From Eledone cirrhosa (taxonomy: Eukaryota), in the NCBI GenBank assembly GCA_964016885.1, contig OZ024742.1, positions 82,956,001 through 83,020,000 of the forward strand: a DNA stretch of 64,000 nucleotides. The letters are read 5' to 3'. Positions 4,071 to 62,624 of the stretch are shown here, piece after piece; the first letter of the stretch is position 1; each line of letters opens with the position of its first letter. The notes below the pieces were generated by a model. It worked only from the letters and a program-made list of their open reading frames with translations. It had not been told where the DNA came from and ran no database searches. The translations under genes and the position numbers were made by a program.

Positions 4071-4258
4071 GAGGGTGGTGGATTGGCAGTATCGGTAGAG
4101 GGTCGGATACCATGCTTTCCAGCATAGTTACGTCCCTTTACGATCTGAGTTCAAATCCCGCCGAGGTTGACTTTGCCTTTCATCCTTACGGGGTCGATAA
4201 AATAAAGTACCAGTAATGAACTGGGTAATTGCTGGCCTTGTGCCTAAAGTAGAAACAA
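4071..4258 (+). mobile_element. tRNA-derived SINE
   Basis: A-box-like tggcagtatcgg, B-box gagttcaaatccc, conserved body and (tta)n tail. Confidence 0.8.
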
Positions 4259-4327
4259 TTATTATTATTATGAATTTAATATGTAAGTCATTAGTATTAT
4301 TTCACCGCAAATCTGCCCAATTGAACA

Positions 4328-6171: not shown

Positions 6172-6445
<274 letters not shown>

Positions 6446-9951: not shown

Positions 9952-9954
<3 letters not shown>

Positions 9955-10192
9955 GAGGAGACTGAGGTTAGCTGAACATTCTCAACGACATCCAGAGTTG
10001 ACATTGCACTAAGTGCTCCTGTAGGAACGCCTACATGGACACACTGGAAGAGGAAGACCAAGGTTAACGTATGTCGATGCCCTAAGGACAAGCACTGGTC
10101 TGTTGGAGACGCAGGACATGGCAGCGATAATGAGGGACAGAGACCGTTGGAGAGAAGTCGTCCATGGATCTCGGGAATTTTACCCACACTAG
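9952..10192 (+). mobile_element. RTE LINE 3' terminal fragment, same family as 16029-17118 and 42069-45322
   Basis: QRRLRLAEHSQRHPELTLH...GRPRLTYVD; nucleotide match to the other copies; flanked by (TA)n. Confidence 0.85.
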
Positions 10193-10216
10193 AATATATA
10201 TATATATGTATATATG

Positions 10217-11152: not shown

Positions 11153-12202
<1,050 letters not shown>

Positions 12203-12507
12203 CTATTCCATTTCTTATGCCCGAAACGTCGTCCCCCACTTACCCCCCACTCTCCTGAGCGTGAAATTAATAAACATTTATTGTACTGCCTCTCTGTTTT
12301 GTCCCTGTTCAAATTTTTCCATTATATATATATATATATACAAATGAATATATGATAGGGATAAACACTAATACAAGTATATAAGTGTTTGTATTGCAAA
12401 TGACCAAGTTAGCTAGATTAAAAAATACTAATTAAATTAATACAGTTTGCCTGTCTCGATTTAAAATAATAAATCAATAAAAACAAACCTATATTGGCAA
12501 TAGCCGT

Positions 12508-12597
12508 GATACCCGGACAAATTTAAATTTCAAATCTTAAATTTGTTTCGCAACAATTAAGGGAAAATTCCCATTCCTGTGCTCTTCTGCAGGTATC
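12508..12597 (-). ncRNA. Type I hammerhead ribozyme, CAGAAGA core variant (504-bp family)
   Basis: Reverse complement: GATACCTG-CAGAAGA-GCA...TGC-GAAA-CAAATTTAA...TTAAATTTG-TC-CGGGTATC. Confidence 0.75.
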
Positions 12598-12831
12598 CAG
12601 AAATTGGTATGTTTCACTTCCAAATACTTAGGAAGACTGAGAGAAATGTGTTGTTGAACGCAAATGTGACCCAGCGTCTAGCTCGTCCTATACTCGTGCC
12701 GCTAGAAATAGCAGCCGGTTTTATGGGACTAAAATATTTAGCTCAACACATGGAGCCAAGAATATGTGCGTTCAACAACACATTTCTCTCAGTCTTCCTA
12801 AGTATTTTGAAGTGAAACATACCAATTTCTG

Positions 12832-12921
12832 GATACCTGCAGAAGAGCAGAGGAATGGCAATTTTCAATTAATTGTTGCGAAACAAATTTAAGATTTGAA
12901 ATTTATATTTGTCCGGGTATC
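12832..12921 (+). ncRNA. Type I hammerhead ribozyme, CAGAAGA core variant (504-bp family)
   Basis: 8-bp stem I GATACCTG/CGGGTATC, extended stem II, long stem III; GUC^ after 12913. Confidence 0.75.
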
Positions 12922-13335
12922 ACGGCTATTGCCAATATAGGTTTGTTTTTATTGATTTATTATTTTAAATCGAGACAGGCAAACTGTATTAATTTAATTA
13001 GTATTTTTCAATCTAGCTAACTTGGTCATTTGCAAGACAAACACTTATATAATTGTATTAGTGTTTATCCCTATGATATATTCATTTGTATTACACGGCT
13101 CAGAAATATCCCTTTCTTTGAGCTATTTAATTGTAAAAGACCATTTGAGTGTATAACTCTATATATAATATTCTCGGCTCCATGTGTTGAGCTAAATTTT
13201 TTAGTCCCATAAAACTGGCTGCTATTTCTAGCGACACGAGTATAAGACGGGCTAGACGCTGGGTCACATTTGCGTTCAACAACAGATTTCTCTCAGTCTT
13301 CCTAAGTATTTTGAACTGAAACATACCAATTTCTG

Positions 13336-13425
13336 GATACCTGCAGAAGATCACAGGAATGGGATTTTTGAATTAATTGTTGCGAAACAAATTTAAGATT
13401 TGAAATTTAAATTTGTCCGGGTATC
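13336..13425 (+). ncRNA. Type I hammerhead ribozyme, CAGAAGA core variant (504-bp family)
   Basis: Same fold 504 bp downstream; the first base of stem II is T instead of G. Confidence 0.65.
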
Positions 13426-13663
13426 ACGGCTATTGCCAATATAGGTTTGTTTTTATTGATCTATTATTTTAAATCGAGACAGGCAAACTGTATTAATGTA
13501 AATAGTATTTTTCAATCTAGCTAACTTGGTCATTTGCAATACAAACACTTATATACTTGTATTAGTGTTTATCCCTATCATATATTCATTTGTAATTTAC
13601 AGCTCAGAAATATCCCTTTCTTTGAGCTATTTAATTGTAAAAGACTGTTTCAGTTTATAACTC

Positions 13664-13723
<60 letters not shown>

Positions 13724-13893: not shown

Positions 13894-13932
<39 letters not shown>

Positions 13933-14003
13933 TGTTCTGCTTTGGGAAGGTCATGTTGCCAATAAGAAACACACAAGAATCTTGCTAAACAAATTCAGAA
14001 ACG

Positions 14004-14051
<48 letters not shown>

Positions 14052-15149: not shown

Positions 15150-15457
15150 GCCGAGGTTAAATTTGCCTTTCATCCTTACGGTGTCGATACAATAAAGCAG
15201 CAGTAATATACTTGTATAATTGCTGGCCTTGTGCCAGAAGTAGAAACATTTATTATTATGATTATTTAAGGCCGGTAGATTGGCAGTATTGGTAGAGGGT
15301 CGGACGCCATGCTTTGACGCATAGAGTTACGGCCCTTGCCATTCTGAGTTCAATTCCTGCCAAGGTTAACTTTCCCTTTTATCCTTAAGGGGTTCATAAA
15401 ATAAAGTACCAGTAATACACTGATTAATTGCTGGCCTTGTGCCAAAAGTAGAAACAA
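15150..15457 (+). mobile_element. Two tandem SINE copies (a 3' half, then a near full-length copy)
   Basis: Both match 4071-4258. Confidence 0.75.
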
Positions 15458-16028
15458 TTATTATTATTATTTATTATCTGACTGCGAAGACATGTTTTTG
15501 TGAGCTCCGCAAAGTAGTGCATTTTCATGACATTTCAATTGTATTAATTGATATATTTTTTTGCAAAACTGTCGTAAAATATCCGACGTTGGCCAGTGAA
15601 TATTATACTCCAATATTTAGACGTTTGAACTTTATATTTCATAATTCGTTGAAAAGAAACAGGAGCGAGACAAGTCTCACAATAGTGAGTCTGCTGTTTC
15701 GTGACAGTGACTTAAAGGTTGATATAAGAGATATTGCAAAAATAACAAGCAGCTTTGTGCACACAAAAGAAAAATATAATAATTACAAACACAACCTGCA
15801 ACAACAAAATTAGCAACACCACCAACAACAACATGAAAACAACATCATCAAATCCCACACTGATGAAAACATCGGCAACAACAACTCCAAGAGCAACCAT
15901 GTAATTAAAAACAACATCAACACCAACTTCAAGAACGAAAACAACAACTGCACCAAGAAAAACACCAATTGCAACAAAATAACAAAATCTTAAACACAGG
16001 AATAAAAACACAAACATCTATTATCTAT

Positions 16029-17118
16029 CTAAGGCGGGTAAAATTCCCGAGATCCATGGACGAGTTCTCTCCAGCGGTCTCTGCCCCTCATTATCGCTGC
16101 CATGTCCTGCGTCTCCAACAGACCAGTGTCTGTCCTTAGGGCATCAACATACGTTAACCTTGGTCTTCCTCTTCTAGTGTGTCCATGTAGTGCCTCCCAA
16201 AGAAGCACTGAGTGCAATGTCAGATCTGGATGTCGGTGAGCATGTCCAGCTAACCTCAGTCTCCTCTGTGTCACTTTTGAGCTGACTTTTGGGATACACC
16301 CATACAGCTCTGAGTTTTTCATCCTCAGTGTATATTGATTAATGTTCAGAGCCATCCTCAGCATTCTCGTGTAGCACCCATCCACCATCTGAGTGAGTTT
16401 CTTGGTCAGTGTCCAATCTCAGACCCATACAGCAGCACAGACTCCACTACAGCAATGAAGAGGCGGATTTTCAGGTCTCTACGAAGGTCCGACTTCCACA
16501 CCGATCTCATGCTGTGGCACGCCGCCCAGGCCTTGCTCTTCCTCTCAACCACATCATCTTCCGTATTCCCAATCTCTGCTCCCAAATACAGGAAGTCCTC
16601 AACCAATTCTAGCGGCTTCCCGCCTACATTAGTGATCCCCTCTGGCTTCTCAACATTCTCTACCAGATATTTTGTTTTAGTCTCATTCATTCTCATCCCC
16701 ACACTCATCGACACAGTCTCAACCTCCCGCATCAAATCCTCTGCCTCCTTCACTGTATTTGTCACCAAAACTATGTCGTCGGCAAATTCAGCATCCGATA
16801 CCTTTTTCGCCCTAACTCTCCTGCTCTGAGTCGGTGCTACAGTAAAGCCAGAGTCCTGGTGTTTCTCCAGTGCAAGGCGCATACAATAGTCCACTACGAT
16901 GATAAAAAGGTAGGGAGCCAATGTATCTCCCTGGAGCACTCCAGCCAGTATCTCAAAGAACTCTTTCATCCTATCAGGTGTAATGACTTGGGTTTTGGTG
17001 TTGGTGTAGAGCAGTGATATCAGGTCCACTATCTTCTTGGGGATTCCATAAGCCTGTAAGATCTTCATCAGGCAGTAACGGTCCACAGAATCAAAGGCCT
17101 TCCTAAAGTCAATGAAAA
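16029..17118 (-). mobile_element. 5'-truncated RTE LINE (RT domain to 3' end)
   Basis: GVLQGDTLAPYLFIIVVDY, EFADDI, FLYLG, ESVLLYGSE; frameshift near 16410; same family as 42069-45322. Confidence 0.95.
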
Positions 17119-18370
17119 CTGGGAGCTAACAAGACATTACGGAGAGCCTTCCATGTGACTCGGGAAACCCAAATGTAAAATCAAAGAGCAGTCTTTTAAA
17201 GCTGTTCCCAATAGAAATCCCATCAGCCATGGAGATGGAACCCTTTCACTTTCACTAACCCCCAGACGCTAAGTAAACATTTTGTCCGTTTATCAATCAT
17301 CAAAATGGCTATCTTAAGAGTTGATTTCATAAATATTCGTTACCTCTCGCTGTCCTTAAATCAGGGTCGCTAGCTGAACGTCATCAGGTCGCTAGATATG
17401 GATGAGACTACATCAGCGAGACCAATATTTCCAACACGCAAACAAACCCCCATTTTCGCCGACTATCAGATCTTCGCATTTATTAGTCCACCAGGAATGG
17501 TAGGTATGGTGGTAGTTTTAGGAAAGGGCGGGATATCGAGCGAGGGAAGGAAGAGCTTCCTTGACCCAGGCAGTACATTGATGGATTGGACGTGAGCATA
17601 TAGGGGACAGGGAGAGAGGGAGTTACAACAAAATCGAATAAAAATAAATTAACAAATAACAATATACAAAAATCAAAAAATGAAAATTCCCCAATAGGAG
17701 GAAAAGCCATCAGGGAACGACTCAGGTAGTCCACCAATTATAAACCACCCGACGCTTCACAGGAGAGCACCTTTCTCCTCCCTAAATCAGACAGCCTACG
17801 AGGAATGGTCAGAGTAGGCCCATTGATCGGGCCATCCATGCAACATTGCACTGAGTGGCAGCAATTCCCTCTTCACCCTCAGCTTCCTTTCCTAGTGAAG
17901 CTTGAAAAAGTTGATGAAGGATTATCCGAATGGAAAAGTGTCCTCTCTTCTGTTCTTTCAGCCTCATACACCACATAACCTCTTTTACTAGAGTCACCAG
18001 CCAGAGAACACTGCCTGCGCATCCCAGCCAAAATAAGGGGGTTGGGAGATCGTCATGATGAATCAGTCCAACCCACGATAAAATAAAAGGAGTTTGATAT
18101 AAAATCAACAAATGAGTAATGCACAGAGCCGTATGACCGAATTTCTGTGGCTCTAGCGTTTACCTCGGAACGGCACTGCCCTATTTATTCATGAATCTCG
18201 GATCAAACGTCCTCCTGAACAGATTGGTCCTTTCATAGGTTCCCGAACCTCCGCGAAGGCGACGTGGCACTTGCCCGTCATCTATTTATTGTTCTAAATT
18301 CCGAACATCTTTTCAGTATGTAAATTGAAATATGCAAATTATATACCTGTATATGTGTATCTATATATAA

Positions 18371-21161: not shown

Positions 21162-21672
21162 ATGTGTGTGTGTGTGTGGCTATCTTCATATTTAATATAC
21201 AAATGGCTTCTACAGGACCATATATATGTTCACTACAAATACGAATAATACCATTACCACCACCCACAAACAACATCACACACACTTACACATCTCTAGA
21301 CATGCACAAACACACATGTTTACAAGCAAAATAAGTACCTTATACACACACATACGTACCCACACATGCTATCATACGCCTTTTGACTCCATATTACTGA
21401 AATTCATCTGAATTAATATATTAAAATTAAAATGTAATAATTAATACGCTGGTAGTGTAAATCATATAAAATATTTCGCGTAGCAACTAGTAACAGTACC
21501 AACTAGTAACTCTAATTAAACACACCTTAGCATCCATAGGTATTCATTACAGTCTTAGGTGAATTATATGTCAGAACACATAATGAACAATTCCAAAGCC
21601 TTATATGTACACCTGTAGGTCTGCAGACCCCCACATACATACAATTATAAGTGACATATATATATATATATA

Positions 21673-22412
21673 TATAAACGGAAAAAATGAAACGAAATTT
21701 CATTTCTCACTCTTAGTACAGCTGTTACTTAAATATAAGTATGTATACGTACATACATATATGTATACAGACGTACAGTAGTATGTATATATATATACAT
21801 ACATGCACACATATATATATGTACGTATGGATTCACCGAACATTTATTATAATACTCGGTGTGTTTGTAAACAAACATCCCGAATTAAGCCGTACAGTGT
21901 CTAGCAACCATCGTTACTCATTTGTTCAACACTAACAAAGGAACGCTGTACTAGTTTCAAGCTTATTAGCTATCGTCAACAACGTATACCTTCCTGCCAG
22001 ATGGTTGAACGTCTGAAAGTATATACTTTCCTTATGCATATTAACGGCTGAGCAGCCTAATTTGCATATCGAGTGTGTTAATCGGCCGGAGTACCGAAAA
22101 CGATAAACGGAAAAATGAAACGAAATTTCATTTCTCACTCTTAGTACAGCTGTTACTTAAATATAAGTATGTATACGGACATACATATATGTATACAGAC
22201 GTACAGTAGTATGTATATATATATACATACATGCACACATACATATATGTACGTATGGATTCACCGAACATTTATTATAATGCTCGGTGTGTTTGTAAAC
22301 AAACATCCCGAATTAAACTGTACAGTGTCTAGCAACCATCGTTGCTCATTTGTTCAACACTGACAAAGGAACGGTGTACTAGTTTGAAGCTTATTAGCTA
22401 CCGTCAGCAACG
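21673..22412 (-). repeat. 428-bp tandem repeat (~1.7 units) with one hammerhead per unit
   Basis: Near-identical blocks at 21741 and 22169; (TA)n flanks. Confidence 0.9.
21943..21985 (-). ncRNA. Minimal type I hammerhead ribozyme (428-bp family)
   Basis: Reverse complement ACGTTG-TTGACGA-T-AGCT aata AGCT-T-GAAA-CTAG-TA-CAGCGT. The second copy (22371-22412) has CTGACGG and CAAA, so the consensus is CTGACGA...GAAA. Confidence 0.65.
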
Positions 22413-22428
22413 ATATGTATATATATGA

Positions 22429-22473
<45 letters not shown>

Positions 22474-22690
22474 GTTAAAGATGTACATCCATATATGTAT
22501 ACTGAAATACTAGTATGTATATGAATACACACACGTATACATATGTAGATGTACCAAGTTTTTTTCACTGGTCACTTTACTGTGAGTGGCCAGCTATTCT
22601 GTATGTAAACACACCGACAAACCGGTTTTTAGAGTCATACGGGTTTTTGAGGAAACACCTTTCCTCTATTCTCCAAAAAGCCAGACAAGG

Positions 22691-22735
22691 AATATTGAAC
22701 TAGTTTCGTTGTTGTTACAACTCATCAGCAATATT
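22691..22735 (-). ncRNA. Minimal type I hammerhead ribozyme (468-bp family, inverted arm)
   Basis: Exact reverse complement of the plus-strand HHR. Confidence 0.9.
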
Positions 22736-22841
22736 TACCTATCTTCCGGCCTCTCTAGAGAATCGTAAAAGCACATATCGTTATATGCTTTTTCTATGAA
22801 AATTAGTAGTACGATTCTCTAGAGAGGCCGGAAGATAGGTA

Positions 22842-22886
22842 AATATTGCTGATGAGTTGTAACAACAACGAAACTAGTTCAATATT
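22842..22886 (+). ncRNA. Minimal type I hammerhead ribozyme (468-bp family, unit 1)
   Basis: AATATTG-CTGATGA-GTTG taacaa CAAC-GAAA-CTAG-TT-CAATATT. Canonical core, 7-bp stem I, palindromic ACTAGT stem III; GUU^ after 22879. Confidence 0.92.
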
Positions 22887-23309
22887 CCTTGTCTGGCTTT
22901 CTGGAGAATAGAGGAAAGGTGTTTCTTCAAAAACCAGTATGACTCTAAAAACCGGTTTGTCTGTGTGTTTACATACAGAATAGCTGGCCACTCACAGTAA
23001 AGTGACCAGTGGAAAAAACTTGGTACATCTACATATGTATACGTGTGTGTATTCATATACATACTAGTATTTCAGTATACATATATGGATGTACATCTTT
23101 AACTTAATTGTTTAAGCGTCAGTCATACAAAAGTGAGTTACAAACGAAACGAAATTTAATTTCGTTTCGTTATTTGTTTTTATCGTCTCCGTTGAACCGG
23201 TACTTACTCACACTCTATGCAAGTTAGTCTGCCCACTACTAATTTTCATAGAAAAAGCATATAACGATATGTGCTTTTACGATTCTCTAGAGAGGCCGGA
23301 AGATAGGTA

Positions 23310-23354
23310 AATATTGCTGATGAGTTGTAACAACAACGAAACTAGTTCAATATT
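23310..23354 (+). ncRNA. Minimal type I hammerhead ribozyme (468-bp family, unit 2)
   Basis: Identical to 22842-22886. Confidence 0.92.
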
Positions 23355-23777
23355 CCTTGTCTGGCTTTCTGAAGAATAGAGGAAAGGTGTTTCCTCAAAA
23401 ACCAGTATGACTCTAAAAACCGGTTTGTCTGTGTGTTTACATACAGAATAGCTGGCCACTCACAGGAAAATGACCAGTGAAAAAAACTTGGTACATCTAC
23501 ATATGTATACGTGTGTGTATTCATATACATACTAGTATTTCAGTATACATATATGGATGTACATCTTTAACCTAATTGTTTAAGCGGCAGTCATACAAAA
23601 GTGAGTTACAAACGAAACGAAATTTAATTTCGTTTCGTTATTTGTTTTTATCGTCTCCGTTGAACCGGTACTTACTCACACTCTATGCAAGTTAGTCTGC
23701 CCACTACTGATTTTCATAGAAAAAGCATATAACGATATGTGCTTTTACGATTCTCTAGAGAGGCCGGAAGATAGGTA

Positions 23778-23822
23778 AATATTGCTGATGAGTTGTAACA
23801 ACAACGAAACTAGTTCAATATT
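23778..23822 (+). ncRNA. Minimal type I hammerhead ribozyme (468-bp family, unit 3)
   Basis: Identical to 22842-22886. Confidence 0.92.
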
Positions 23823-24245
23823 CCTTGTCTGGCTTTCTGAAGAATAGAGGAAAGGTGTTTCCTCAAAAACCAGTATGACTCTAAAAACCGGTTTGTCTGT
23901 GTGTTTACATACATAATAGCTGGCCACTCACAGTAAAGTGACCAGTGAAAAAAACTTGGTACATCTACATATGTATACGTGTGTGTATTCATATACATAC
24001 TAGTATTTCAGTATACATATATGGATGTACATCTTTAACTTAATTGTTTAAGCGTCAGTCATACAAAAGTGAGTTACAAACGAAACGAAATTTAATTTCG
24101 TTTCGTTATTTGTTTTTATCGTCTCCGTTGAACCGGTACTTACTCACACTCTATGCAAGTTAGTCTGCCCACTACTAATTTTCATAGAAAAAGCATATAA
24201 CGATATGTGCTTTTACGATTCTCTAGAGAGGCCGGAAGATAGGTA

Positions 24246-24290
24246 AATATTGCTGATGAGTTGTAACAACAACGAAACTAGTTCAATATT
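24246..24290 (+). ncRNA. Minimal type I hammerhead ribozyme (468-bp family, unit 4)
   Basis: Identical to 22842-22886. Confidence 0.92.
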
Positions 24291-24713
24291 CCTTGTCTGG
24301 CTTTCTGGAGAATAGAGGAAAGGTGTTTCCTCAAAAACCAGTATGACTCTAAAAACCGGTTTGTCTGTGTGTTTACATACAGAATAGCTGGCCACTCACA
24401 GTAAAGTGACCAGTGAAAAAAACTTGGTACATCTACATATGTATACGTGTGTGTATTCATATACATACTAGTATTTCAGTATACATATATGGATGTACAT
24501 CTTTAACTTAATTGTTTAAGCGGCAGTCATACAAAAGTCAGTTACAAACGAAACGAAATTTAATTTCGTTTCGTTATTTGTTTTTATCGTCTCCGTTGAA
24601 CCGGTACTTACTCACACTCTATGCAAGTTAGTCTGCCCACTACTAATTTTCATAGAAAAAGCATATAACGATATGTGCTTTTACGATTCTCTAGAGAGGC
24701 CGGAAGATAGGTA

Positions 24714-24758
24714 AATATTGCTGATGAGTTGTAACAACAACGAAACTAGTTCAATATT
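24714..24758 (+). ncRNA. Minimal type I hammerhead ribozyme (468-bp family, unit 5)
   Basis: Identical to 22842-22886. Confidence 0.92.
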
Positions 24759-25052
24759 CCTTGTCTGGCTTTCTGGAGAATAGAGGAAAGGTGTTTCCTC
24801 AAAAACCAGTATGACTCTAAAAACCGGTTTGTCTGTGTGTTTACATACAGAATAGCTGGCCACTCACAGTAAAGGGACCAGTGAAAAAAACTTGGTACAT
24901 CTACATATGTATACGTGTGTGTATTCATATACATACTAGTATTTCAGTATACATATATGGATGTACATCTTTAACTTAATTGTTTAAGCGTCAGTCATAC
25001 AAAAGTCAGTTACAAACGAAACGAAATTTAATTTCGTTTCGTTATTTGTTTT

Positions 25053-25106
<54 letters not shown>

Positions 25107-25138
25107 TAACGAGAATGTATATATATATATATATATGA

Positions 25139-25220
<82 letters not shown>

Positions 25221-26330
25221 GAACATTCATATATATATACATTCTCACCCTCAATTACTCCGTATACACGCGTTTAACTCTGTAGTAATAGATCCCACTT
25301 AATTAAAATGTGCTTTATTTTTTAAAGATTAATTGTATACTTCTACCTCTAGTTTAAGGTAATTTACGTGTTATCTTAGCTACCAGTAACAAAAAAAAAA
25401 AGAAAAAATAGGTTCTCTAGTTTACAGATACACTTAATTTGTTAATGGTTTACTTGGCTACTCTTTGATCGGTAGAACTTACTGCTGGTCGTGATGCAAA
25501 TATGGCTCTGTGGTCTGAAAATGGCGGAGACATGCCTGGTGGCAGGCATACATACACACACACCCTCATATATCTTCGATCGATATAATTCTACCTCCTC
25601 TTAACAATTCTATCATAAGTATAACGCGGATGAACGCATGGTGACACACATACATAAACATACGGATGCACATACCGATGCGCACATAGCCACACACATC
25701 CATAGGCACACATACACAGGTACTTTCCCATTCATACAAATACTCCTTAAATATATATATAAAAATGTATAAAAATCCATGTATCTGTATCTGTATATGA
25801 GAAATGCAATCAAATCATTCTAAAACCCTTTGCAAGATCCCATAAGAAACACTTTATATCCTTATATGGACAAACTACGCCCCAATGATATGGACTAACC
25901 GAGATGATAACAGTATGGAACTAGCTGTTGAAATGATAAGAGCTGAGCCGTCGGGTCCCGATTCTTTATAATATAGGCATCCTCTACTACCTCAGTTATC
26001 AAGGACTCTATTGAGTAATAGTCTAACTAGTTTTAAACTGGTTCCATCTTAATATATGTATATATATATATATATGTGTGTGTGCATCTGTGCATGTGTG
26101 TGTGTGCGCGCGTCCCAGGTTCAATCGGGGTAACCACAGTAAGTAAGGTACTTAATACATTAGTAGTATGTAAACATCAAGTTTCATATAGAGAATGGCT
26201 TCTAAATTTCTAGTCTTGTAGAAGCCAATTCTATATCAAATTTGTTATACGTATATATACACAGTTTATACACATACTTTGACCCATACCCGTATCTCCG
26301 TCTCTATCTCTCTCCCCCTCTCTCTCTCTT

Positions 26331-30367: not shown

Positions 30368-30406
<39 letters not shown>

Positions 30407-30408
<2 letters not shown>

Positions 30409-30552
30409 AATAGTGAAGAATAACATGGTAGGCTGTACAAAAAGGGTTTTATTTACAGTATTAACAATTGTTTCATTGATCAATGAAACAATTGTTAATA
30501 CTGTAAATAAAACCCCTTTTGTACAGCCTACCATGTTATTCTACACTATTTC
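30407..30552. repeat. Near-perfect 146-bp spacerless palindrome
   Basis: Centred on attGATCaat (30479/30480). Confidence 0.9.
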
Positions 30553-31404
30553 TCTAGTATTACTCCTACAATAACCTACATGAGAATTCTCGTAAACTCG
30601 CTACCTAACTAAGGAAACTTCTTGTCGAGTCAAACAACGCCGTACGTTAAAACTATCCATAGTACAGAGAGAGTACTCTCAACCTCTAACTGGATTAACT
30701 AAAACGATAACTTGTTATCCCATATATATATATATATGGTTAGAGAATTGGACTCTCGATTGTGAGGTTGTGAGTACGATTCCCGGAGAGGGTGACGCAT
30801 TATGTCCTTGGGCAAGACAATTTATTTCACGTTGCTCCTTCAGCCTGGAGTTGCGACCGATAGAAAATATTTGCAATTGGAAAGACTAATGCAAACATGG
30901 ATTCCTCGGTCCGATTTAACAAAAACCTCCTCACCTACCCGAAAGAACATCAGCCATTACGGTGGTATATGGGAATAAATATGAACTTGTTGACCAGATT
31001 CCATTTGTTCAGATTTGCCCTCTTCCAAACCATCTTTGGGGTCACGGAATACGCAATCTTTGTCCTTCCATCATACCCACCCCAGGCTAGAGGTCCATCA
31101 CCAGCTTCTACGGCATGAAACAGTGACAGGCCACTCTACATAAAACATACAGGTTACCTCTCACCATAATGAACTTTTTTGTGGTCTTCTTTTTGCCACT
31201 CAGAGGTAGCCTACTTATCACTCGTCATAGCTAAATAATTGGATGCGAGAGTTTTCTTGGGAGACACTGATGTCACACATTGCTCCATCTCCCCGAATTG
31301 TGTACCTTTGTTGGTACGAGATTGCTCATTCTTCCGGCAGCTGCCCGCTTATATGGCAGCTAACCATCATATATGGTGGCTGTGTAGCCCCTCGCCACCT
31401 GCAA

Positions 31405-35737: not shown

Positions 35738-35747
35738 ATATTATATC

Positions 35748-36137
35748 AGTTTGAAGAGCAGTCAGACAAAATATATCCAACTTTTCTTCTCTTTAGGCCG
35801 CAGAAATTAACTAGATAAATAACCATGAATTCAAAAGGGGTCAGAAGCATCACGTAGCCAGCAGTCAAATTAGAAGGGTCTGAAGCGTAGGTCGGGTGGC
35901 AGGTAGGTTCACTGCTAGAAGGAACAGTTAGTTACAGCCTAAGGTTTACTCAACCGAATGGGAGTATAGAATAAATTCATAAGGATATCAGAGAGGGAAT
36001 TATGTGACATGTATCTGTTATTTATTCAAAGTTATATTTTAAACTTAGCTCCGTTTAAATGTTTATTTATCTAGGTAATTTCTGCGGACTAAGGAGAAGA
36101 AAAATTGGATATATTTTGTCTGACTGTTCTTCAAACT
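35748..36137. repeat. Element bounded by ~75-bp imperfect inverted repeats
   Basis: agtttgaagagcagtcagacaaaatatatccaa... / ...ttggatatattttgtctgactgttcttcaaact. Confidence 0.7.
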
Positions 36138-36335
36138 TATAATTTTATATAGATCTGATTAATAATTATTTGTTTAATTAATTGTTTTATGGAGCCACAC
36201 TCATATATGTATATGTGACTATATCCTTATGGATTTATATATATAGAGAGAGAGATATATAAACAATATGTAGAAAGGATAACACACTAGAGGGAGAGTG
36301 TGTGCCATCAATAAACAGGGAAACCGCCAGTTCTG

Positions 36336-36747: not shown

Positions 36748-36924
36748 TAATTGTTTCTACTTTAGGGGAAGGCCAGCAATTACCCAGTACATTACTGGTA
36801 CTTTATTTTATCGACCCCGTAAGGATGAAAGGCAAAGTTAACCTCGGCGGGATTTGAACTCAGACTGTAAAGGGACGTAACTATGCTATAAAAGCAAGGC
36901 GTCCGACCCTCTACCGATACTGCC
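36748..36924 (-). mobile_element. SINE, same family as 4071-4258
   Basis: Reverse-complement match including the B-box. Confidence 0.8.
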
Positions 36925-36939
36925 TATATATATATATAT

Positions 36940-37256
36940 ATACAATATATTAACAAATGGAAACTATATTTATAAAACCATATTTATTTTATTCTACATA
37001 TTTCAAGGGCCACCAGGGCAAATTATGGAGCGTTTCATCAGATAAAATACAATACAGATTTGTTTTATAAATAAACATTGACATACACTGAAAAAAGACA
37101 ACCTTAACGGTTGGAGCTTTCTAGATATAAAACAAATCTGTATTGCATTTTATCTGATGAAAGCGCACCATAAGTTGCTTTGGTCGCCCTTGAAATATGT
37201 ATAATAAAATAAATATGGTTTTATAAATATAGTTTCCATTTGTTAATATATTGTAT
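36940..37256. repeat. Foldback with a hammerhead in each arm (family E)
   Basis: Arms 36940-37069 and 37125-37256; a related 3' fragment lies at 59710-59785. Confidence 0.8.
37147..37210 (+). ncRNA. Type I hammerhead ribozyme (family E)
   Basis: ATTTTAT-CTGATGA-AAG..ACCA...TGGT..CTT-GAAA-TATGTA-TA-ATAAAAT. The minus copy (36986-37048) has G at the U16.1 position. Confidence 0.65.
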
Positions 37257-37342
37257 ATTTACTCCACTACACTCTTGAGTGCTTTATATCAGTTATAAAA
37301 ATGTTTAAGCTTGTTGAATCCCATCAAATTAAATATAACCTC

Positions 37343-37485
<143 letters not shown>

Positions 37486-37931: not shown

Positions 37932-38237
37932 TTAATTTTTACTGGACCGGCAATAGCTCTGTATAATCAGTTCCTGATTATTACTGGAATTCTATAAGAA
38001 TCCAGCCCTTATAATTTTCGGCAGATGTCGGGGAGTACCTTGCACTGTGGGACACCAACAGTGTGAAACAGAATCTGTCGGCTTCTCTTCCTTCCTTTGC
38101 CGAAAAAAGTAAGTGACAAGTTTACAAGTTGTTCAAAATGTGTTTAATTAAACATTGCATATTACCAAATATACTATACATACATTCATGTATACATCGC
38201 TATTTCAGCGCACGAATCCTAATATATATAGATATAT

Positions 38238-38880
38238 ATGAAGTTAATATGCCCACGGGTACTAGGTACCACTGGAAATATATAGGTTGTCTATGATACA
38301 GGGTTGTTCAATGGTATTAATTTGACATACCAGAACTATAATATTGAGATAAGCAGAACAAGCAAAATTCAAACAACTTTTTTAAAATAAATTAAAAAAC
38401 ATAATTTAAAGATTTACCTACTCCAGTTGCTTTTACCGATCGGTTTCCCTTCACAAAACATTAGAAATCCATGGGGACCTCCAATGGAAAAGTCAAGTTC
38501 ATCAGAAAGCATTTTCCTTTCCTAGGACTAAAAGTCCCAGGAACGGCTAAATATATTGCCATCTGCCAGCTAGCACAGGACCGAATGAGGCCAAAATTTG
38601 ACCTGTACATGAACCAGTCCGTAGCAAAAGCGGAAGTAAACATAGACGTGTTGTTTACTCCACCACTAAAAATAGCAGCCAAAGAGAACAACAGATTTGT
38701 TCTCTACATAACGGAGAATATTAAATGAAGTTAATATGCCCACGGGTACTAGGTAACCCTGGAAATATATAGGTTGTCTATGATACAGGGTTGTTCAATG
38801 GTATTAATTTGACATACCAGAACTATAATATTGAGATAAGCAGAACAAGCAAAATTCAATACAATTTTTTAAATTAAATT
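38238..38880 (-). repeat. 487-bp-period partial tandem (~1.3 units) with a central hammerhead
   Basis: Direct repeat of ~150 bp at 38239 and 38726. Confidence 0.85.
38428..38511 (-). ncRNA. Type I hammerhead ribozyme with an expanded stem II (487-bp family)
   Basis: Reverse complement TGCTTT-CTGATGA-aCTT...TCCAT..ATGGA...AAGg-GAAA-CCGATCGG-TA-AAAGCA; palindromic ACCGATCGGT stem III, GUA^ site. Confidence 0.8.
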
Positions 38881-40842
38881 AATACCATTAAACATTCCAT
38901 ATTTAGGTATATGTGTTCTCACAAGTAGATGCACGTACTTCACCATAGTATTGTGTCCCTAAACGAAGTTTATTTCCTTTAATAGATACAATGTAATTTG
39001 TCTGCAGTATGTATACAATGAGATATGATTGTAATATATATTTTTTTTCTATTACAGAATGAGTTGATATTACATTCGGGGTGCACGTAAAAACACGCAA
39101 GAACAACATCAATAATATCTGTGAGGATATATTTAAATTAGCTTTCTTTTAATCTAGGCATTTGAGGTACCTTGGGATCAACCTATATTATAAATTAGGC
39201 ACCTCCTTCAAAAAGCTCTGTCTAAATTTTAGTTTTAAATATAACGTGAGATATAACAAATATCGTATTCTATGACCGCGTATCGTTTAAATAAAGTACG
39301 TAAATTGTTTTTGAAAATCCTCATTATTTTTTTTCAAGAATTAGTGGAATCAGTTTCTTAAGCCAGTCGGATGATGTAAACATTTGTGACTTCGTACATT
39401 TAATAATTACCTAGATTATAGTAATTATAAACTTTCTATGATGTGTCCATTTTCGAGTTCACTTGTGATGTCTACCTGTGGATATTCTAGATTTTTGTGA
39501 GTTATTAATTATTTTCGTTCTAAAAATATACGCTGTTTTACCTGTATTCAATATTGTGCTTTTCAACCATCTTATTGAACATGAAGCTTTGTATGAAGTT
39601 TGTTTCAATTACGTGTTTCCTCTCATTTATTCGAAACCCAATATAATATATTAAGTTGATATATTTTTTGTTTCTTTAGTATTATCAATTAGTATCGTCA
39701 ATCGCGACATTTTATTATGCGCTTCAATAATTTTATAACAATATCAACAGAAATATAAATTCAATAGACATATACGTATATCTAAGCGTGTATTTTGAAT
39801 ATATAGACACACTAAAACTGGTGATTGTTTATATGACCAATTGCAGAAAAGGCAATGCACAAATTGTATTTATATCATAAACCATAAATGATGAAGCACT
39901 CAATCGGGATTTAATGCCTGAGTGCTTTGGATCGAAACTAAATTCTACAATATATTTAATCAACTTCTCTTCTACGCTTTATGTCTGCAACCTTTATGTC
40001 TGCAAATATGTTTTATTGCTAAGGTGATCTGTATTAGCTTTCATCTTCTATTTGCATTACTTGAACAATCTGACTGATTTAAAGTAATTATTTCGTGATT
40101 GTTTTATTTAGTTTTGCTAGTCCTTATATTTCTTTTTTTTTTCTACTCGTGGTTTATGTTGCAGAAACTTGTTCTACAATTGCTTATATTTTACAAGCAA
40201 TTGTTTATTAAGCTAAGCTTGGTGTACTGCATATTTTTGTTGTTTGATTTTGTATAAAGTAAGGGAAATTGTGTTTAGTTGTTTTCCCTCCTCGTTATTG
40301 GAATATTTCTTGAGAATAACGTAAAGAGAAACACTACCACTTCAGTTAAAGATGGACGAAGACAAAGAATACAATTATTTAAGGAATATTATCATCATTT
40401 AGTTATTCTTAATTTTTCTACTTTGCTATACTTCTTGATGATATCATGAAAGGATATATGAATTGTGTCCAATCAAGTTATAGTTAAGAATAAGAAACAA
40501 TATGTCACCCTAATAGAAGAGGCAAATACAACATGTTCCTAACCTCGAAACTTTAAAATACATTACAAAAGGTAGCAGCAACTGAAGTTTTAAATCAACA
40601 TATAACTTCACTGCTCACAAGTGTTTTTTAAGCTTCATATCATGTCTCCCTATTTTATCTGATGAGAACGCAGATATCATCCCATGATGATATTTCTTTT
40701 TGAAATGCGCATAATAAAATATTTGGAACTCTTTTAACCATCTTTTGATCTTATATTATTTATACTCCAGTCCTACAAACCGTAGAGTGCCACTTAGCCG
40801 ATATTTGCATTGCTTTATTGTGCTACAATAAAACTCACCTCC

Positions 40843-42041: not shown

Positions 42042-42309
42042 TATATGTATATGCATACATATATATATAACCCATAAATGGGGCCCTAACAGGTACTACT
42101 ACTCCGGGCCAGAGCAGACCTGGATGTACTTTAATGTCATACCCAGGACATTAAACTACATCCAGTGGCAACGCTCCAGTTGGGGAGTTCAGGAGCTGTG
42201 AGGGATGTGGAGTTACCCCTTAGTTGTCATAACTCCCAGGTCTGCTCTGGCCCGGAGTAGTAGTACCTGTTAGGGCCCAATTTATGGGTTAAATAACTAC
42301 CTTAGTCGA

Positions 42310-43188
42310 GTGGCGCCGGTAAGCTATTGTCAGCCATTGAAAAAAAATATGGAGACTCTATCTAACAGCACTAGGGTTAGAGCCCCTAATTACACTGTCA
42401 AGGAGAAGTCTGGTCGTTATGACTCTGCTGGCTTAGAGCCACAGGGGGTGGGGTCAGTTGATGATGGATCAGCTGTCTCTGAAACAAATATAAAGAATGC
42501 AGTTTTGTCCTACAGAAGAGCCATCAAAATGGGCAATTTGAATGTGAGGACTATTAGGACGCTGGAGAAGAGAGAGGATTTGGGACATCTGTTCGAGGAG
42601 AGTGGTATACAGATACTTGCGATCCATGAACACAGGATCCTACACGATCAGCCCGTGAGGGGTGTGATGATTGGGAAGATGAGCCAGCTCATCACCACAT
42701 CGGCAGTGAAGAACATGACCAATGCTGCTGTGGGAGGAGTGGGGTTTGTTTTCAGCACAAAAACCAGTCTATTGGTGAGGGAAATAATACCTGTCTCCCC
42801 GCGAGTGTTGGGGGTAACCTTCAATGGAAACCCAAGACTGACAGTCATCTCAGCCTATAGTCCAACCGACGGAGACAGTGACGTGAGTGCGGAAGAGTTC
42901 CATGACGAGGTGTGTAGAGCTGTCAACACCACACAAGCACACAACATCCTGCTTGTTTTGGGGGACTTCAATGCACATCTGAGTAAGGAGGGCAGTGAAG
43001 ATCCTTGCTGGTACTTCCATAACAACACCAACCGAAATGGAAGACTACTGAGAAACACCCAGCTGGAGGCGAACTTGATAGCAACCAACCTAAGGTTTAG
43101 GAAGAATCCGGGGAAGATGTGGACCTACATCTCAGATATGCACCTGTCCAAGTCCCAGATTGATTTCATTCTGGTGAGGAAAATGTAG
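42310..43188 (+). pseudogene. Apurinic-like endonuclease domain of the RTE ORF
   Basis: GNLNVRT, ILAIHEHR, GGVGF, ISAYSPT, LGDFNAH, NRNG, SQIDFIL. Confidence 0.92.
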
Positions 43189-43440
43189 CGGAATAGTATT
43201 CTGAGCACAGAACCATACAACTATTTCAGTACACTGGAGAGTGCCCACCGGCTTGTTATGAGTGAGGTCCGGGTGAGCTTAAGACAGAGCAAGGCTCAGC
43301 CCTGGAGAGTAATATATGACTGGGGAGCTTTCAAGGAAGATGATAAGCTACACGAGAGGTTCACAGTGGAAATGAGGAACAGGTTCAGTGCTCTGTGTGG
43401 GGAGACAGAGGAGAGAGAGATTGGATAGACTGAGGAGAGT

Positions 43441-45257
43441 GTGACGACGAGGTACGGGCACTTCACCAATACGGTGGCGGAAGCAAGTGAGACCCTGGTG
43501 CCGAGGAGAAAGAACAAAAGGAAGCACGTCAGCTCTGCAGACCCAAAAGTGTGTGCAGCCAGAGAACACCTGAAAGCTGCCAAGGACCAATTCTATGCTG
43601 ATCCTACGGAGGAGAGGATGGAGACTGTGGAGGTGATGAGGGAAGAATTCTGTACCGCTTACACTGAGGCCAGACAGGAGGTACTGATAGAGAAGATCAG
43701 AAATGTGGAGAGAGCGGTTGACAGGTCTGGATGTAAGGAGAGCTGGATGATCATCAACCAGATCACTGGGAGGAATAGAAGGTGTTCGAGTCAGATATCG
43801 GGACCAGGACACGAGGATAGGAAGAGGAAATGGCTAGACCATTTTAGGACCCTACTAGGAGAGCCGCCCTCCACAGCCCAGAGCACTGGGGAGATCAGGC
43901 AGCTGTTGGAAGAACAGGATATTGAGACAGAACCCTTCACCAGAGAGGAGCTTCAGAGAGCCAAGAAGACGATAAAGGAGGGCAAGGCGAGAGAAGAGGG
44001 AGTGGAATCAGAGGTGATGAAGAGGTGTGATTTTGATGATATCATCCTGAGATTCTGTAACCAGGCACTGGAGAAAGAAGTTGCCCCGAATCAGTGGAGG
44101 ATCAGTAACATCGTCCCAGTGCCAAAGAAGGGAGATCTCGCTAACACCAACAACTACAGGGGGATCTCACTGACGTCACTTGTGGCAAAGACCCTCAACA
44201 GGATGATTCTTAACAGGATCCAGCCTGAGATGGAGAAGACGCTCAGGGACAACCATAACGGTTTCAGAGAGGGAAGATCAACCGCCAGTCACATCCTGAT
44301 GCTGAGGAGGATATTAGAGGGAGCTAGAGCAAAGTGCCTTCCTGCTGTCATGGTTTTCATTGACTTTAGGAAGACCTTTGATTCTGTGGACCGTCACTGC
44401 CTGTTGAAGATCTTACAGGCTTATGGAATCCCCAAGAAGATAGTGGACCTGATATCACTGCTCTACACCAACACCAAAGCCCGAGTCGTTATACCTGATG
44501 GGAAGACAAAGTTATTTGAGATACTGGCTGGAGTGATCAAGGGAGATACATTGGCTCCCTACATTTTTATCATCGTAGTGGACTATTGTATGCGCCTTGC
44601 ACTGGAGAAACACGAGGACTCTGGTTTTACTGTAGCACCGGCTCAGGGCAGGAGAGTTAAGGCGAAAAAGATATCGGATGCTGAATTTGCCGACGACATA
44701 GTTTTGGTGACAAATACAGTGACTGAGGCAAGGGATTTGATGCAGGAGGTTGAGACTGTGTCGATGAGTGTGGGGCTGAGAATGAATGAGACTAAAACAA
44801 AATATCTGGTAGAGAATGTTGAGAATCCAGAGGGGATTACTAATGTAGGCAGGAAACCGGTAGAATTGGTGATGACTTCCTGTATTTGGGAGCAAAGATT
44901 GGGAATACAGAAGATGATGTGGTTGAGAGGAAGTGCAAAGCCTGGACAGCGTGCCACAGCTTGAGATCGGTGTGGAAGTCGGACCTTCCTAATGACCTGA
45001 AAATCCGCCTCTTCATTGTTGTAGTGGAGTCTGTGCCACTGTACGGGTCTGAGACTTGGACAGTGACCAAGAAACTCACTCAGATGATGGATGGGTGCTA
45101 CACGAGAATGCTGAGGATGGCTCTGAACATTAACCAGTATGCACTGAGGAGGAAAATCTCAAAGCTGTGTGGGAGCCTCCCAAAAGTCAGCTCAAAAGTG
45201 ACACAGAGGACACTGGGATTAGCTGGACATCCTCACCGACATCCAGAGTTGACATAG
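43441..45257 (+). pseudogene. Reverse transcriptase domain of the RTE ORF (frameshifted)
   Basis: PVPKKGDL..NYRGISL, GFREGRST, FIDFRKTFDSV, GDTLAP, EFADDI, LYGSETW. Confidence 0.93.
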
Positions 45258-45478
45258 CACTCAGTGCTCCTGTGGGAACCCCCACCCCTCTACATGATTC
45301 TCTGAAATTTTACCCGCCCTAGAATACATTTATATATAATAGTCCAGAAATAGCCGTCGAAACGGCTTGAGCTCTGCCGTCGGGGTCATACTTGTTCCTA
45401 TTACCTACTCTACTACCCTAAGTATTGAGTACTTTGGTACGTTATGGTCCATCTGGTTCCTTACCACAATTCCTGCGT

Positions 45479-45756: not shown

Positions 45757-47400
45757 TTAGATGCAAAATATTTGGAATGTTTTACTTATTTTTACTGTTC
45801 CATTAATGGATTGTACTTGTAATTTCATAACTAGTTGTGTTCTTTCTGTTCCTGTGAAGCCCAGGTTCTCAAGATTTGTATTGAGGCAGTTACTAACACA
45901 TCCCAGTGCCCCAATAATCACAGGTATAATCAGGGTGGAGTATCTGCAGATTTCTCATCATTTCTGCATGAATATTTTCTTTTTCGCTAATCGTTGATAT
46001 TATATTGGCATTTGCTTCCACTACTGTGCATGCCTTCTTTTCCCTGTCCCATATCATAATATCTGCTCACTTATTTCGTATGTTTTTGTTGTAGTGTAGG
46101 AGAAATATTTATTTTCGATTTCTTTTAGCCACACTGCATCTTGGCTGAAATTCTTCATTTCACCTCATATTTTTCCCAAAAAGGAATCTATGTCTTTCTG
46201 GGATGGGGCCTCAGTGACACTTATTATTTTGCCCTTCATATCTTTTATTAAGCACTTTTCTTTCCTCTACCTTCTGAAGGTATCGGCGTTTTTCGCTAAC
46301 AGCTCTCAATTCTTGTTTGAGGGTGATCAGCTTATAGTGGAGAGTTCTGTTTCTACTGTTACCAAACATCGTCTCTATTTTATTTTTCACTCTTTGTTGG
46401 TTGAGGAGTGAAGTTATTTTGTGTGTGTTTGAATGTAAAGAGCATTGTCACATATCCTATGGTTTTTCGTAGGTCAGCAAACTTTTTTTCTATTTTAGTT
46501 ATATATGATGGTATTATTGGTGGTGTTTTGTCCTTGTTAATATCTCTGATATCACCAAGATAATGCTTCACTGTAGTTGCTAAGGTATATAAACAAGCGT
46601 TGATTTGCCAAAATGTTGGGGTTCTTATCCGTCGTAAATATTCATTCCCTATTTCGTCAATAACACGTAATATTTCATTATTTGTTTTTTTATTAAATAT
46701 TGTTGTTTTTATACGTTCAGAAAGAGAAATGTTTATACATGAATTAATTTCTCTCTTGAAGATTTCGTTGAGGGAAATGTTCAATTGTTTATACTTTTGA
46801 TTATTATTATTATCGATAGTATTTTCCACAACAATCGAGGTAGACTCAGATGGGACACGTGGTGTCAAATTTCTTCGATTATTATTATTATCGATAGTAT
46901 TTTCCCCAGCATTCGAGGTAGACTTAGATGGTACACGTGGTGTCTGATTTCTTACAGGCATAGTTGTTTGAAGGCACTGTTCGGCCTGATTGGTAGGAAG
47001 TTTAGTAGCATGGCGACGTGTTGTTGATTCCATGTTTGTTGTGGGAGACTTACAATTAATAATATTTATCTTATTTTTACGTTCAACAAACGTAGCTTGT
47101 TGGCGTAATTGTTTCGCTGTGAAATGATTTAGGCACTGGATGTATTTCGTCCCAGTGTAGCTTCATTCTGTACATATAGCCAATGGAGGGATTGTTTTTT
47201 GGCCATGTTATAACAATTAAATAAATCATCATTAAGTTCGCAACTCCAAGGGAAATGCAATTTATAATTTCGGTTTCTTCTGTAGCTACAACTGAAAAAA
47301 TTTTGTTTACCATTCTCGTTTTTCTTCGGTATTCCACTGATGTTGTTGTTGCTGATGTTGTGTTCAGCCATGCCGTTTGTATCAAATCCTTGTAAAATAA
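45757..47400 (-). mobile_element. Internally deleted R4/Dong-like LINE (N-terminal region joined to the RLE C-terminus)
   Basis: YMYRMKLHWDEIHP N-terminal block; 217-aa ORF; IIPVIIGALG tail at ~45930; 46065-46243 duplicates 48790-48968. Confidence 0.7.
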
Positions 47401-55558: not shown

Positions 55559-55960
55559 TGTATGTGTGTGTGTGTGTTGGAAGAAGACTGGTGGGTAATA
55601 TATCCGGAGAAGTGAAGCATTCAATCCATGGGATGAGTTCGGTAGAAGTTGTTCCACAATAGGTAATTCATCGTTTCCAAGAACAACTTGTTTCATCTAA
55701 GGCCGATTATCGGCTCATTATATCATTTAATCCGAACTGATGATCCGTCTGAGACGAAACAAATTATTCTCGGAAAAATGGTGAATTAACTCTTGTGTAA
55801 ATACTTATATATATATATATATATATATTATTGCTTAATACGACATATAGTATATATAAGAAAAGAGTCAGGACCGCAACAGCTGAGCTCCGGTCGTTTC
55901 GACAGCCATTACCCACTCTACTACCCTAAGTATCGAGTAATCTGGTACGTTATATATATA

Positions 55961-56179
55961 TAGGAACGAGTAGGACCCCGACGCCTGAGCTCAAGCCGTT
56001 TCGACGGCTAATTCTGGAGTAAACAAATTTTTTTTTTTTTTTAGTCCAGAATTAGCCGTCGAAACGGCTTTAGCTCAGCCGTCAGTGTCCTACTCGTTCC
56101 TATTACCCACTCTACTACCCTAAGTATTGAGTACTTTGGTGCGTTATGGTCCATCTGGTTCCTTACCACATTTCCTTCG

Positions 56180-56181
<2 letters not shown>
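55961..56181. repeat. Foldback copy of the agccgtcgaaacggct family
   Basis: Arms 55961-56017 and 56045-56102 around a poly-T spacer, followed by the family 3' tail. Confidence 0.75.
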
Positions 56182-56230
<49 letters not shown>

Positions 56231-59778: not shown

Positions 59779-59811
<33 letters not shown>

Positions 59812-62578: not shown

Positions 62579-62624
62579 GTCGAACGCGCAACCAGACAGC
62601 ACCTAAGAAAATATCAACATAGAT

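Follow-up and report, generated by a model that had tools for sequence, protein, structure and literature searches.

Fixed internal end sites in hammerhead retrozymes of Eledone cirrhosa and their probable mobilisation in trans by a (TA)n-targeting PLE

Families A and B and the related copy C lie in a 64-kb window of the Eledone cirrhosa genome (the window being the whole stretch of DNA analysed), where their 3' ends fall at or near two homologous positions, site A and site B, downstream of a hammerhead ribozyme. They are probably non-autonomous, hammerhead-carrying PLE-type (non-LTR) retrozymes, which is mostly a known phenomenon. The favoured reading of their ends, with a probability of roughly 0.7, is that a (TA)n-targeting PLE mobilises them in trans, reverse transcription starting internally at sites A and B on RNA left uncut by the ribozyme, one site per target strand. 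This reading builds on the architecture of the copies, two classes of end, hairpin conservation, TA flanks and TA overlap observed in the window; internal two-site initiation and (TA)n targeting are carried over, as probable features, from published work on PLEs.

In such a model, an RT/GIY-YIG protein, presumably encoded outside the window, would move A, B and C in trans. The template would be an RNA running through the unit, either an uncleaved multimer or a circle, rather than a monomer ending at the ribozyme cut. The protein would nick both strands of a (TA)n tract, and reverse transcription would begin internally, both in the loop of a small hairpin (site A) and at the base of a long hairpin 58-75 nt downstream (site B). 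With each site extending one target strand, the product would be head-to-head arms with a tail at one end only, and UA/TA pairing over 2-5 nt probably decides the exact start nucleotide.

Layout of array A

Family A consists of a tandem direct arm and a shorter inverted arm, laid out as follows.

22413..22468: (TA)n tract flanking both the inverted arm of A (at its 3' end) and family B (at its 5' end)
22469..22810, minus strand: inverted arm, 5'-truncated, head to head with the direct arm; its 3' end is site A at 22469, 229 nt past the cleavage point, abutting (TA)n
22810..25055, plus strand: direct arm, 4.8 copies of a 468-nt unit, 98% matches, 35.5% GC, non-coding
24703..24774, plus strand: type I hammerhead of the last unit (motif scan), with a short palindromic helix III and predicted cleavage after 24751
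After 22879, 23347, 23815 and 24283 (plus strand) and 22698 (minus strand): the other predicted cleavage points
24975..24988, plus strand: small conserved hairpin with site A at its loop edge (internal copy, site A at 24980)
24981..25055, plus strand: tail from site A to site B, 75 nt, direct arm only
25015..25043, plus strand: tail hairpin, 13 bp with a 3-nt loop
25044..25055, plus strand: 12-nt linker with TTTAT at its end
25055: site B, the direct-arm 3' end, 304 nt past the cleavage site
25056..25248: right flank, interrupted (TA)n and a degenerate motif

The units carry distinct SNPs at 14 positions, which rules out an assembly artefact. Units 2-5 have three SNPs in common (positions 95, 310 and 326) in mutually incompatible patterns, a misfit with a single round of copying from one circle, barring later mixing of the units by exchange.

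The degenerate motif of the right flank is also found in the left flank. It is a TA motif with GAATG, present at 22413-22430 and 25113-25145 and inverted at about 25225-25248. A target-site duplication at this array would be hidden by (TA)n, and what the flanks carry is a displaced repeat plus an inverted repeat. The GAATG-motif copies suggest duplication or snap-back copying of target DNA at integration.

Family B and copy C

Family B adjoins array A on its left, and copy C lies about the 12-kb position.

21656..21673: (TA)n flank at the 3' end of family B
21674..22412, minus strand: family B, 1.7 copies of a 428-nt unit; its 5' end is the start of hammerhead helix I
21682-21708, minus strand: family B hairpin, 12 bp, with site B at 21674
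11909..12048, minus strand: copy C inverted arm, whose 3' end at site A is joined to the (TA)n of 11816-11910
12054..12211, plus strand: copy C direct arm, 87% identical to B, ending at or just past the hairpin, outside (TA)n
12212..12322, plus strand: unrelated fragment fused to copy C, which by eye reads as the 3' half of another hammerhead and enters (TA)n

Family B has no inverted arm. On the minus strand its end reads CCGTTTAT at 21674, followed by 18 nt of alternating TA, and this site B lies 274 nt past the hammerhead cleavage site. The 5' end at 22412 falls exactly at the helix I start, 36 nt ahead of the cleavage site, and runs straight into (TA)n.

The arms of copy C are 87-90% identical to B. 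Its hairpin is weaker (10/12 pairs; z -0.2), and the direct-arm end is ambiguous over 16 nt (12202-12218). A sequence-only reading of the same DNA had described one fragment at 11911-12202 stopping at the hairpin. A direct arm does end near the hairpin, but the locus comprises two head-to-head arms, and the direct one joins foreign sequence, not (TA)n. Continuation of the family through 12203-12322 was dismissed (p 0.83 against the downstream part of A and 0.53 against that of B). The orphan half-hammerhead fragment at 12212-12322 may record a template jump between two PLE RNAs. An nhmmer search of the 64-kb window with an A/B/C profile found no further copies beyond low-complexity matches, and two exact-pattern scans of bacterial and archaeal genomes for stray copies gave no matches.

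Hammerheads and classification

The hammerhead core is intact in all six family A copies (motif scan). The A hammerhead matches Rfam Hammerhead_HH9 at 37.7 bits (E 3.6e-7), below the gathering score of 52, and a 61-nt window around it folds at -9.4 kcal/mol. At the gathering threshold Rfam returned no match, and the microRNA matches obtained at the E-value threshold stem from AT-rich palindromes and lie far under gathering, leaving Hammerhead_HH9 as the only meaningful one. Both family B cores are substituted, each differently, and B alone would fail the requirement of hammerheads in two consecutive units; helix I is retained in A and B with differing sequence. Elsewhere, hammerhead-like motifs were noted at 55737-55770 and 40659-40720, with no other copy recognised in the window.

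Families A and B are non-coding, with 35.5% and 36.2% GC and longest ATG ORFs of 62 and 64 aa. A tandem of few-hundred-nt units, a type I hammerhead in at least two consecutive A units, GC below 50% and absence of coding capacity are the marks of a retrozyme, and no LTR layout is seen in the A and B units. Three structural marks of PLEs are also present: a head-to-head, inverted, 5'-truncated copy (A and C), a tail at one end only, and a hammerhead within the terminal repeat.

The units contain no ORF, and Pfam searches of 93 of the 124 filtered ORFs of the window found no GIY-YIG or other PLE protein (the other 31 being mostly overlapping frames or inside repeats). An autonomous PLE label for A, B and C was therefore dropped. 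As the elements have no ORF, the driving PLE clade cannot be assigned, and three short motifs had no informative match in the part of the PMC8557442 supplement available. Neptune or Hydra would be a likelier driver than Naiad, as Naiads lack canonical hammerheads. An RTE-like LINE in the window (42274-45330) was set aside as the mobiliser because the element layout is PLE-like.

Two homologous end sites

The sequence-only reading had placed the ends of both subfamilies at one homologous point, just after a conserved hairpin and running into (AT)n, about 270-300 nt past the ribozyme. Much of this holds. The 468-nt array ends at 25055, with TTTAT followed by interrupted (TA)n, and the 428-nt array ends on its sense strand at 21674 and passes into alternating TA for 18 nt. 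Where the arrays end, the interior units of both have TTTAT|CGT, so the two stop at exactly the same homologous position, 304 and 274 nt past cleavage. Whole-unit alignment of A with B gives 70% ungapped identity (score 252, against a maximum of 79 in 200 shuffles). By our own arithmetic, such a coincidence would have a chance of about 1/450 at any position, or about 1/22 if an alternating TA run of 3 nt is required, there being 22 such runs per unit.

Where that reading falls short is in taking the hairpin point as the 3' end, since two of five ends lie at a second site upstream of the hairpin. This is site A, a conserved CTTA in a small hairpin, where two inverted arms end in (TA)n, that of A at 22469 and that of C at 11909. 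It precedes site B by 75 nt in A and 58 nt in B and C. The five A/B/C 3' ends, a small sample in which A and B are moreover adjacent, comprise two at site B, one near it and two at site A; none is at the ribozyme cleavage site, which rules out ends set there. Four of the five adjoin (TA)n, the background rate being 0.56% per position (binomial P 5e-9). The DNA is AT-rich, and its 84 arrays of (TA)6+ cover 5.3% of the 64-kb window.

Overlap of the junctions with (TA)n

At all seven independent sites where the continuation of the unit is known, the junction overlaps (TA)n by 2-5 nt. Random cuts reach an overlap of at least 2 nt with a probability of 0.16-0.24, giving a joint probability of about 2e-5. 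The overlap is real but small, and is by itself compatible with pairing and with later extension of a TA seed alike. The proposal that TTTAT anneals to a nicked (TA)n target has to be reduced accordingly in length: only TAT (3 nt) fits pure (TA)n, and possible pairing spans 2-5 nt.

Growth of (TA)n at the ends during or after insertion (by slippage, RT stuttering or snap-back), or trimming of ends by recombination at TA-rich points of the satellite, would also place TA at the junctions. A TA seed is present at every measured site, and (TA)6+ arrays are as numerous as just described, yet each unit offers 22 equally good seeds and the ends still coincide across subfamilies. The direct and inverted repeats of the degenerate TA motif in the A flanks fit such growth, and SNPs common to several units indicate some local exchange; against this, (TA)n borders family B on both sides, and published PLE clades target (TA)n (PMC8557442). 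We regard this account as highly improbable.

The tail hairpin

A conserved hairpin does precede the end, as had been claimed, with 13 bp in A and 12 bp in B. It is present in all five direct-arm units of family A, with no match in 100 shuffles. Aligned loop to loop, the A and B hairpins keep 12 of 12 pairs through eight substitutions, with three two-sided and two one-sided changes, a covariation count that is valid only in the structure register and compares two lineages, as alignment by sequence places the stem 5 nt out of that register.

The units as a whole fold strongly (z -9.0 for A and -8.0 for B), and the ribozyme strand folds better than its antisense (-151.7 vs -130.8 kcal/mol for A and -140.1 vs -114.9 kcal/mol for B). 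Each unit has about ten conserved hairpins, in similar order in A and B, and for 11-14% of unit positions a stem of 10 bp or more ends no further than 15 nt upstream. Tail folds reach z -2.9 in A, -2.5 in B and -2.1 in family D (described below), and z of -2.5 or lower is found in 31% of tail-sized windows of A and 17% of those of B. The tails of three further families, E, G and H, show no significant fold (z -0.6, -0.5 and -0.75). Across families, tail similarity is confined to A and B (p 0.003); the other 14 tail pairs, at uncorrected p of 0.017 to 0.99, are taken as showing none.

The sequence-only reading saw the hairpin as an RT recognition or priming site. Internal, hairpin-linked starts match those of the anole PLE PAc in vitro (PMC11167929), which makes a recognition role plausible by analogy, with the mobilising protein perhaps binding the tail hairpin. 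Less favourable to that role are the presence of two start sites flanking the hairpin, the ten or so hairpins of each unit, and the unfolded tails of E, G and H.

A simpler use of the same structure would be an RNA that ends at site B, through termination at a U-rich stretch or nuclease trimming to the stem, and then undergoes ordinary target-primed reverse transcription. The 13-bp stem and T-rich run form the sole terminator-like match in 24682-25100 (a bacterial-type scan, descriptive only), but the array reads through four internal copies of the site. A T5-T6 run is present at site B of family B too, and in PAc the RNA-seq read ends coincide with start sites (PMC11167929); site A, though, lacks a U-run, and the ends of E, G and H lack a stem plus U-run. 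RNA ending at site B is very unlikely on this evidence.

The same layout in four unrelated families

Four further repeat families in the window, D, E, G and H, are unrelated and have the same layout, with tails of 72, 58, 80 and 89 nt.

12339..13671: family D, whose inverted arm ends at its own site A and whose direct 504-nt tandem ends 72 nt beyond, both in (TA)n
11154..11820: family E, with a hammerhead at 11614, one arm at site A and the other 58 nt beyond
13929/14006, 29075 and 36682: recurrences of the family E sites
55961..56183: family G, with arms at site A and at site B 80 nt beyond, and likewise at 6352/6445
45480, 18543 and 30371: solo site-B ends of family G
36937..37349: family H, with a hammerhead-like core at 37154 and arms at site A and about 89 nt beyond; site A again at 59787

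No hammerhead was found in families D and G by motif scan. The family D inverted arm (12764-12768, 13168) stops at the site B of the preceding unit, giving a unit minus its tail.

Across the five families (A/B/C, D, E, G and H), 28 ends were classified by us as 12 at site B, ten at site A and six elsewhere. The junctions of the B direct arm, the D inverted arm (against u1), most E rows and the plus arm of G at 55 kb were read from alignments. Alternating TA, in places short or interrupted, follows 25 of the 28 ends, a count that is favoured by the choice of D-H by eye near (TA)n. Site B in E, G and H is set by the start of (TA)n. As a rough control, two of six ends of SINE-like and RTE-like families enter (TA)n, one of them owing to adjoining family H. 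Among ten two-armed loci, seven pair site A exactly with site B, copy C pairs A with a position near B, and two have one off-site end.

Fixed ends of this kind could also be inherited, if donor copies already stop at one of the two sites, with (TA)n next to it, and their read-through transcripts, ending in (UA)n, anneal to nicked (TA)n in the manner of LINEs or SINEs, the hairpin being incidental. Such inheritance needs no internal recognition to account for the (TA)n flanks and the fixed ends; taken alone, it makes no prediction that each arm uses one site. In its favour, the site-B junctions are almost letter-identical among G and E copies, but some ends deviate to other AT motifs inside the unit: E 37702 stops about 12 nt short, while G 55953 falls short by 36 nt and E 11154 by 2 nt. 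The unstructured tails of E, G and H also suit it. Arms of one locus, in contrast, are each other's nearest relatives in three of five testable loci (E at 11 kb, 99.4%; C, 96%; H, 94%; not G at 56 kb or E at 29 kb), and internal initiation by a PLE on RNA running past the site has been demonstrated (PMC11167929). Inherited ends are an unlikely explanation, and internal initiation at sites A and B is preferred.

A more specific form of internal initiation is twin priming at fixed sites by (TA)n-targeting PLEs, in which a dimer of the protein, bound to the tail of one RNA, would set the nicked strands at sites A and B. Each strand would be held by 2-5 nt of UA pairing, and reverse transcription from B would either stop short of A or displace the cDNA begun at A. 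A single event would thus give two head-to-head arms, always with the tail on one of them and not the other. None of the ten two-armed loci has both arms at one site (neither A+A nor B+B), which has a probability of about 0.03 by coin toss over the five loci for which both sites are defined by other loci too. At two loci, 13929-14006 and 6352-6445, the site-B arm stops before site A, so that the arms do not overlap, and the mutual closeness of arms at three of five testable loci points the same way. Twin priming is a tentative proposal, possible rather than probable.

In L1 twin priming, both target strands prime on one RNA, which yields an inversion with a deletion, a random second site and non-overlapping arms. 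The loci at 13929-14006 and 6352-6445 resemble this outcome, whereas the families of the window have a fixed second site and, in most cases, overlapping arms.

Other repeats in the window

Further inverted repeats, head to head and flanked by (TA)n on one side only, lie at 30403-30556, 35744-36141 and 42064-42295, and are possibly older PLE-type insertions. RTE-like LINE copies at 42274-45330, 16014-17125 and 9953-10209 have endonuclease and RT domains (Pfam) with several broken frames; the named match of highest identity to the RTE-like ORF, at 69% across 45% of the query, comes from Octopus bimaculoides. A repeat family with (TAA)n-type flanks, which we take to be SINE-like, occurs at 4051-4279, 15150-15470, 36748-36930 and 1495-1635. 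The start of a gypsy-like LTR retrotransposon polyprotein at 62607-64000 has an RNase H-like domain (Pfam) across several frames. Direct repeats 46067-46243 and 48791-48968, 2.7 kb apart, surround a 260-aa ORF, and a 487-nt partial tandem lies at 38235-38882.

Relation to known elements

PLEs are laid out as tandem copies with an inverted arm and a one-sided tail of 30-40 nt, and insert at (TA)n targets (PMC8557442; PMC3846280). (TA)n is a preferred target of Naiad and Hydra PLEs and is listed for Octopus Naiads, and Neptune is biased towards microsatellites (PMC8557442). Naiad, Hydra and Neptune share with A, B and C the partial tandems, an inverted 5'-truncated copy, the tail at one end and (TA)n that masks target-site duplications (PMC8557442).

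The closest parallel in initiation is PAc, a Poseidon PLE of Anolis carolinensis, which cuts AT-rich DNA on both strands in vitro and starts reverse transcription internally at two adjacent, stem-loop-linked sites; the tail of its genomic copies corresponds to the interval between these sites, and the process does not depend on ribozyme cleavage (PMC11167929). It resembles the pattern proposed for A, B and C in two starts downstream of the hammerhead, a tail between them, cutting and extension of both target strands, and AT-rich targets, and differs in being autonomous with a tail of 30-40 nt, against 58-75 nt in the non-autonomous A, B and C. The PAc stem-loop is AC-rich and lies about 85-92 nt past cleavage (our own subtraction), whereas site B of A and B lies at 274-304 nt and the stem is AU-rich (A+C 43-45%). 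PAc initiation is described as target-non-homologous (PMC11167929), in contrast to the 2-5 nt by which A/B/C-type junctions overlap (TA)n.

Animal retrozymes have been defined and tied to PLEs (PMC7229834; PMC4209133; bioRxiv 10.64898/2026.07.22.740005), and the non-LTR group has been proposed as non-autonomous PLE derivatives (PMC7229834; bioRxiv 10.64898/2026.07.22.740005). Families A and B share with these retrozymes the non-coding tandems, GC below 50% and a type I hammerhead with short palindromic helix III (same sources). Their units of 468 and 428 nt lie at or just over the range of 150-450 nt in PMC7229834 and within the 51-972 nt of bioRxiv 10.64898/2026.07.22.740005. In the available portions of these two sources, array ends, inverted arms and tails are unmapped. 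Terminons, or Athena PLEs, resemble A and B in a 3' RNA fold beside a short stretch with pairing potential for a repetitive target; in terminons the hammerhead itself forms the fold and a telomeric overhang is the target, whereas A and B have a separate hairpin about 300 nt downstream and pairing of a few bases at most (PMC6431247).

Significance

A literature search, with subscription papers mostly outside its coverage, returned no paper that maps retrozyme array ends, cephalopod retrozymes or PLE twin priming, and families A-H may already be catalogued in repeat databases. The tail, internal starts at a stem-loop and (TA)n targets are already published, so the gain is incremental unless twin priming holds genome-wide; longer tails, TA microhomology and the pairing of one site with each arm are modest additions.

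The insertion footprint ties animal retrozymes to PLE machinery beyond ribozyme type or repeat similarity, and the inserted ends are not defined by the ribozyme cut. Short, young copies of this kind are handy substrates for studying how PLEs acquire inverted repeats and a one-sided tail, and how the first nucleotide is chosen at a microsatellite. If twin priming is true, it would explain the structure of PLEs as an inverted repeat plus one tail, and a cis element of about 100 nt, comprising the small hairpin, the long hairpin and UA, would suffice for mobilisation in trans.
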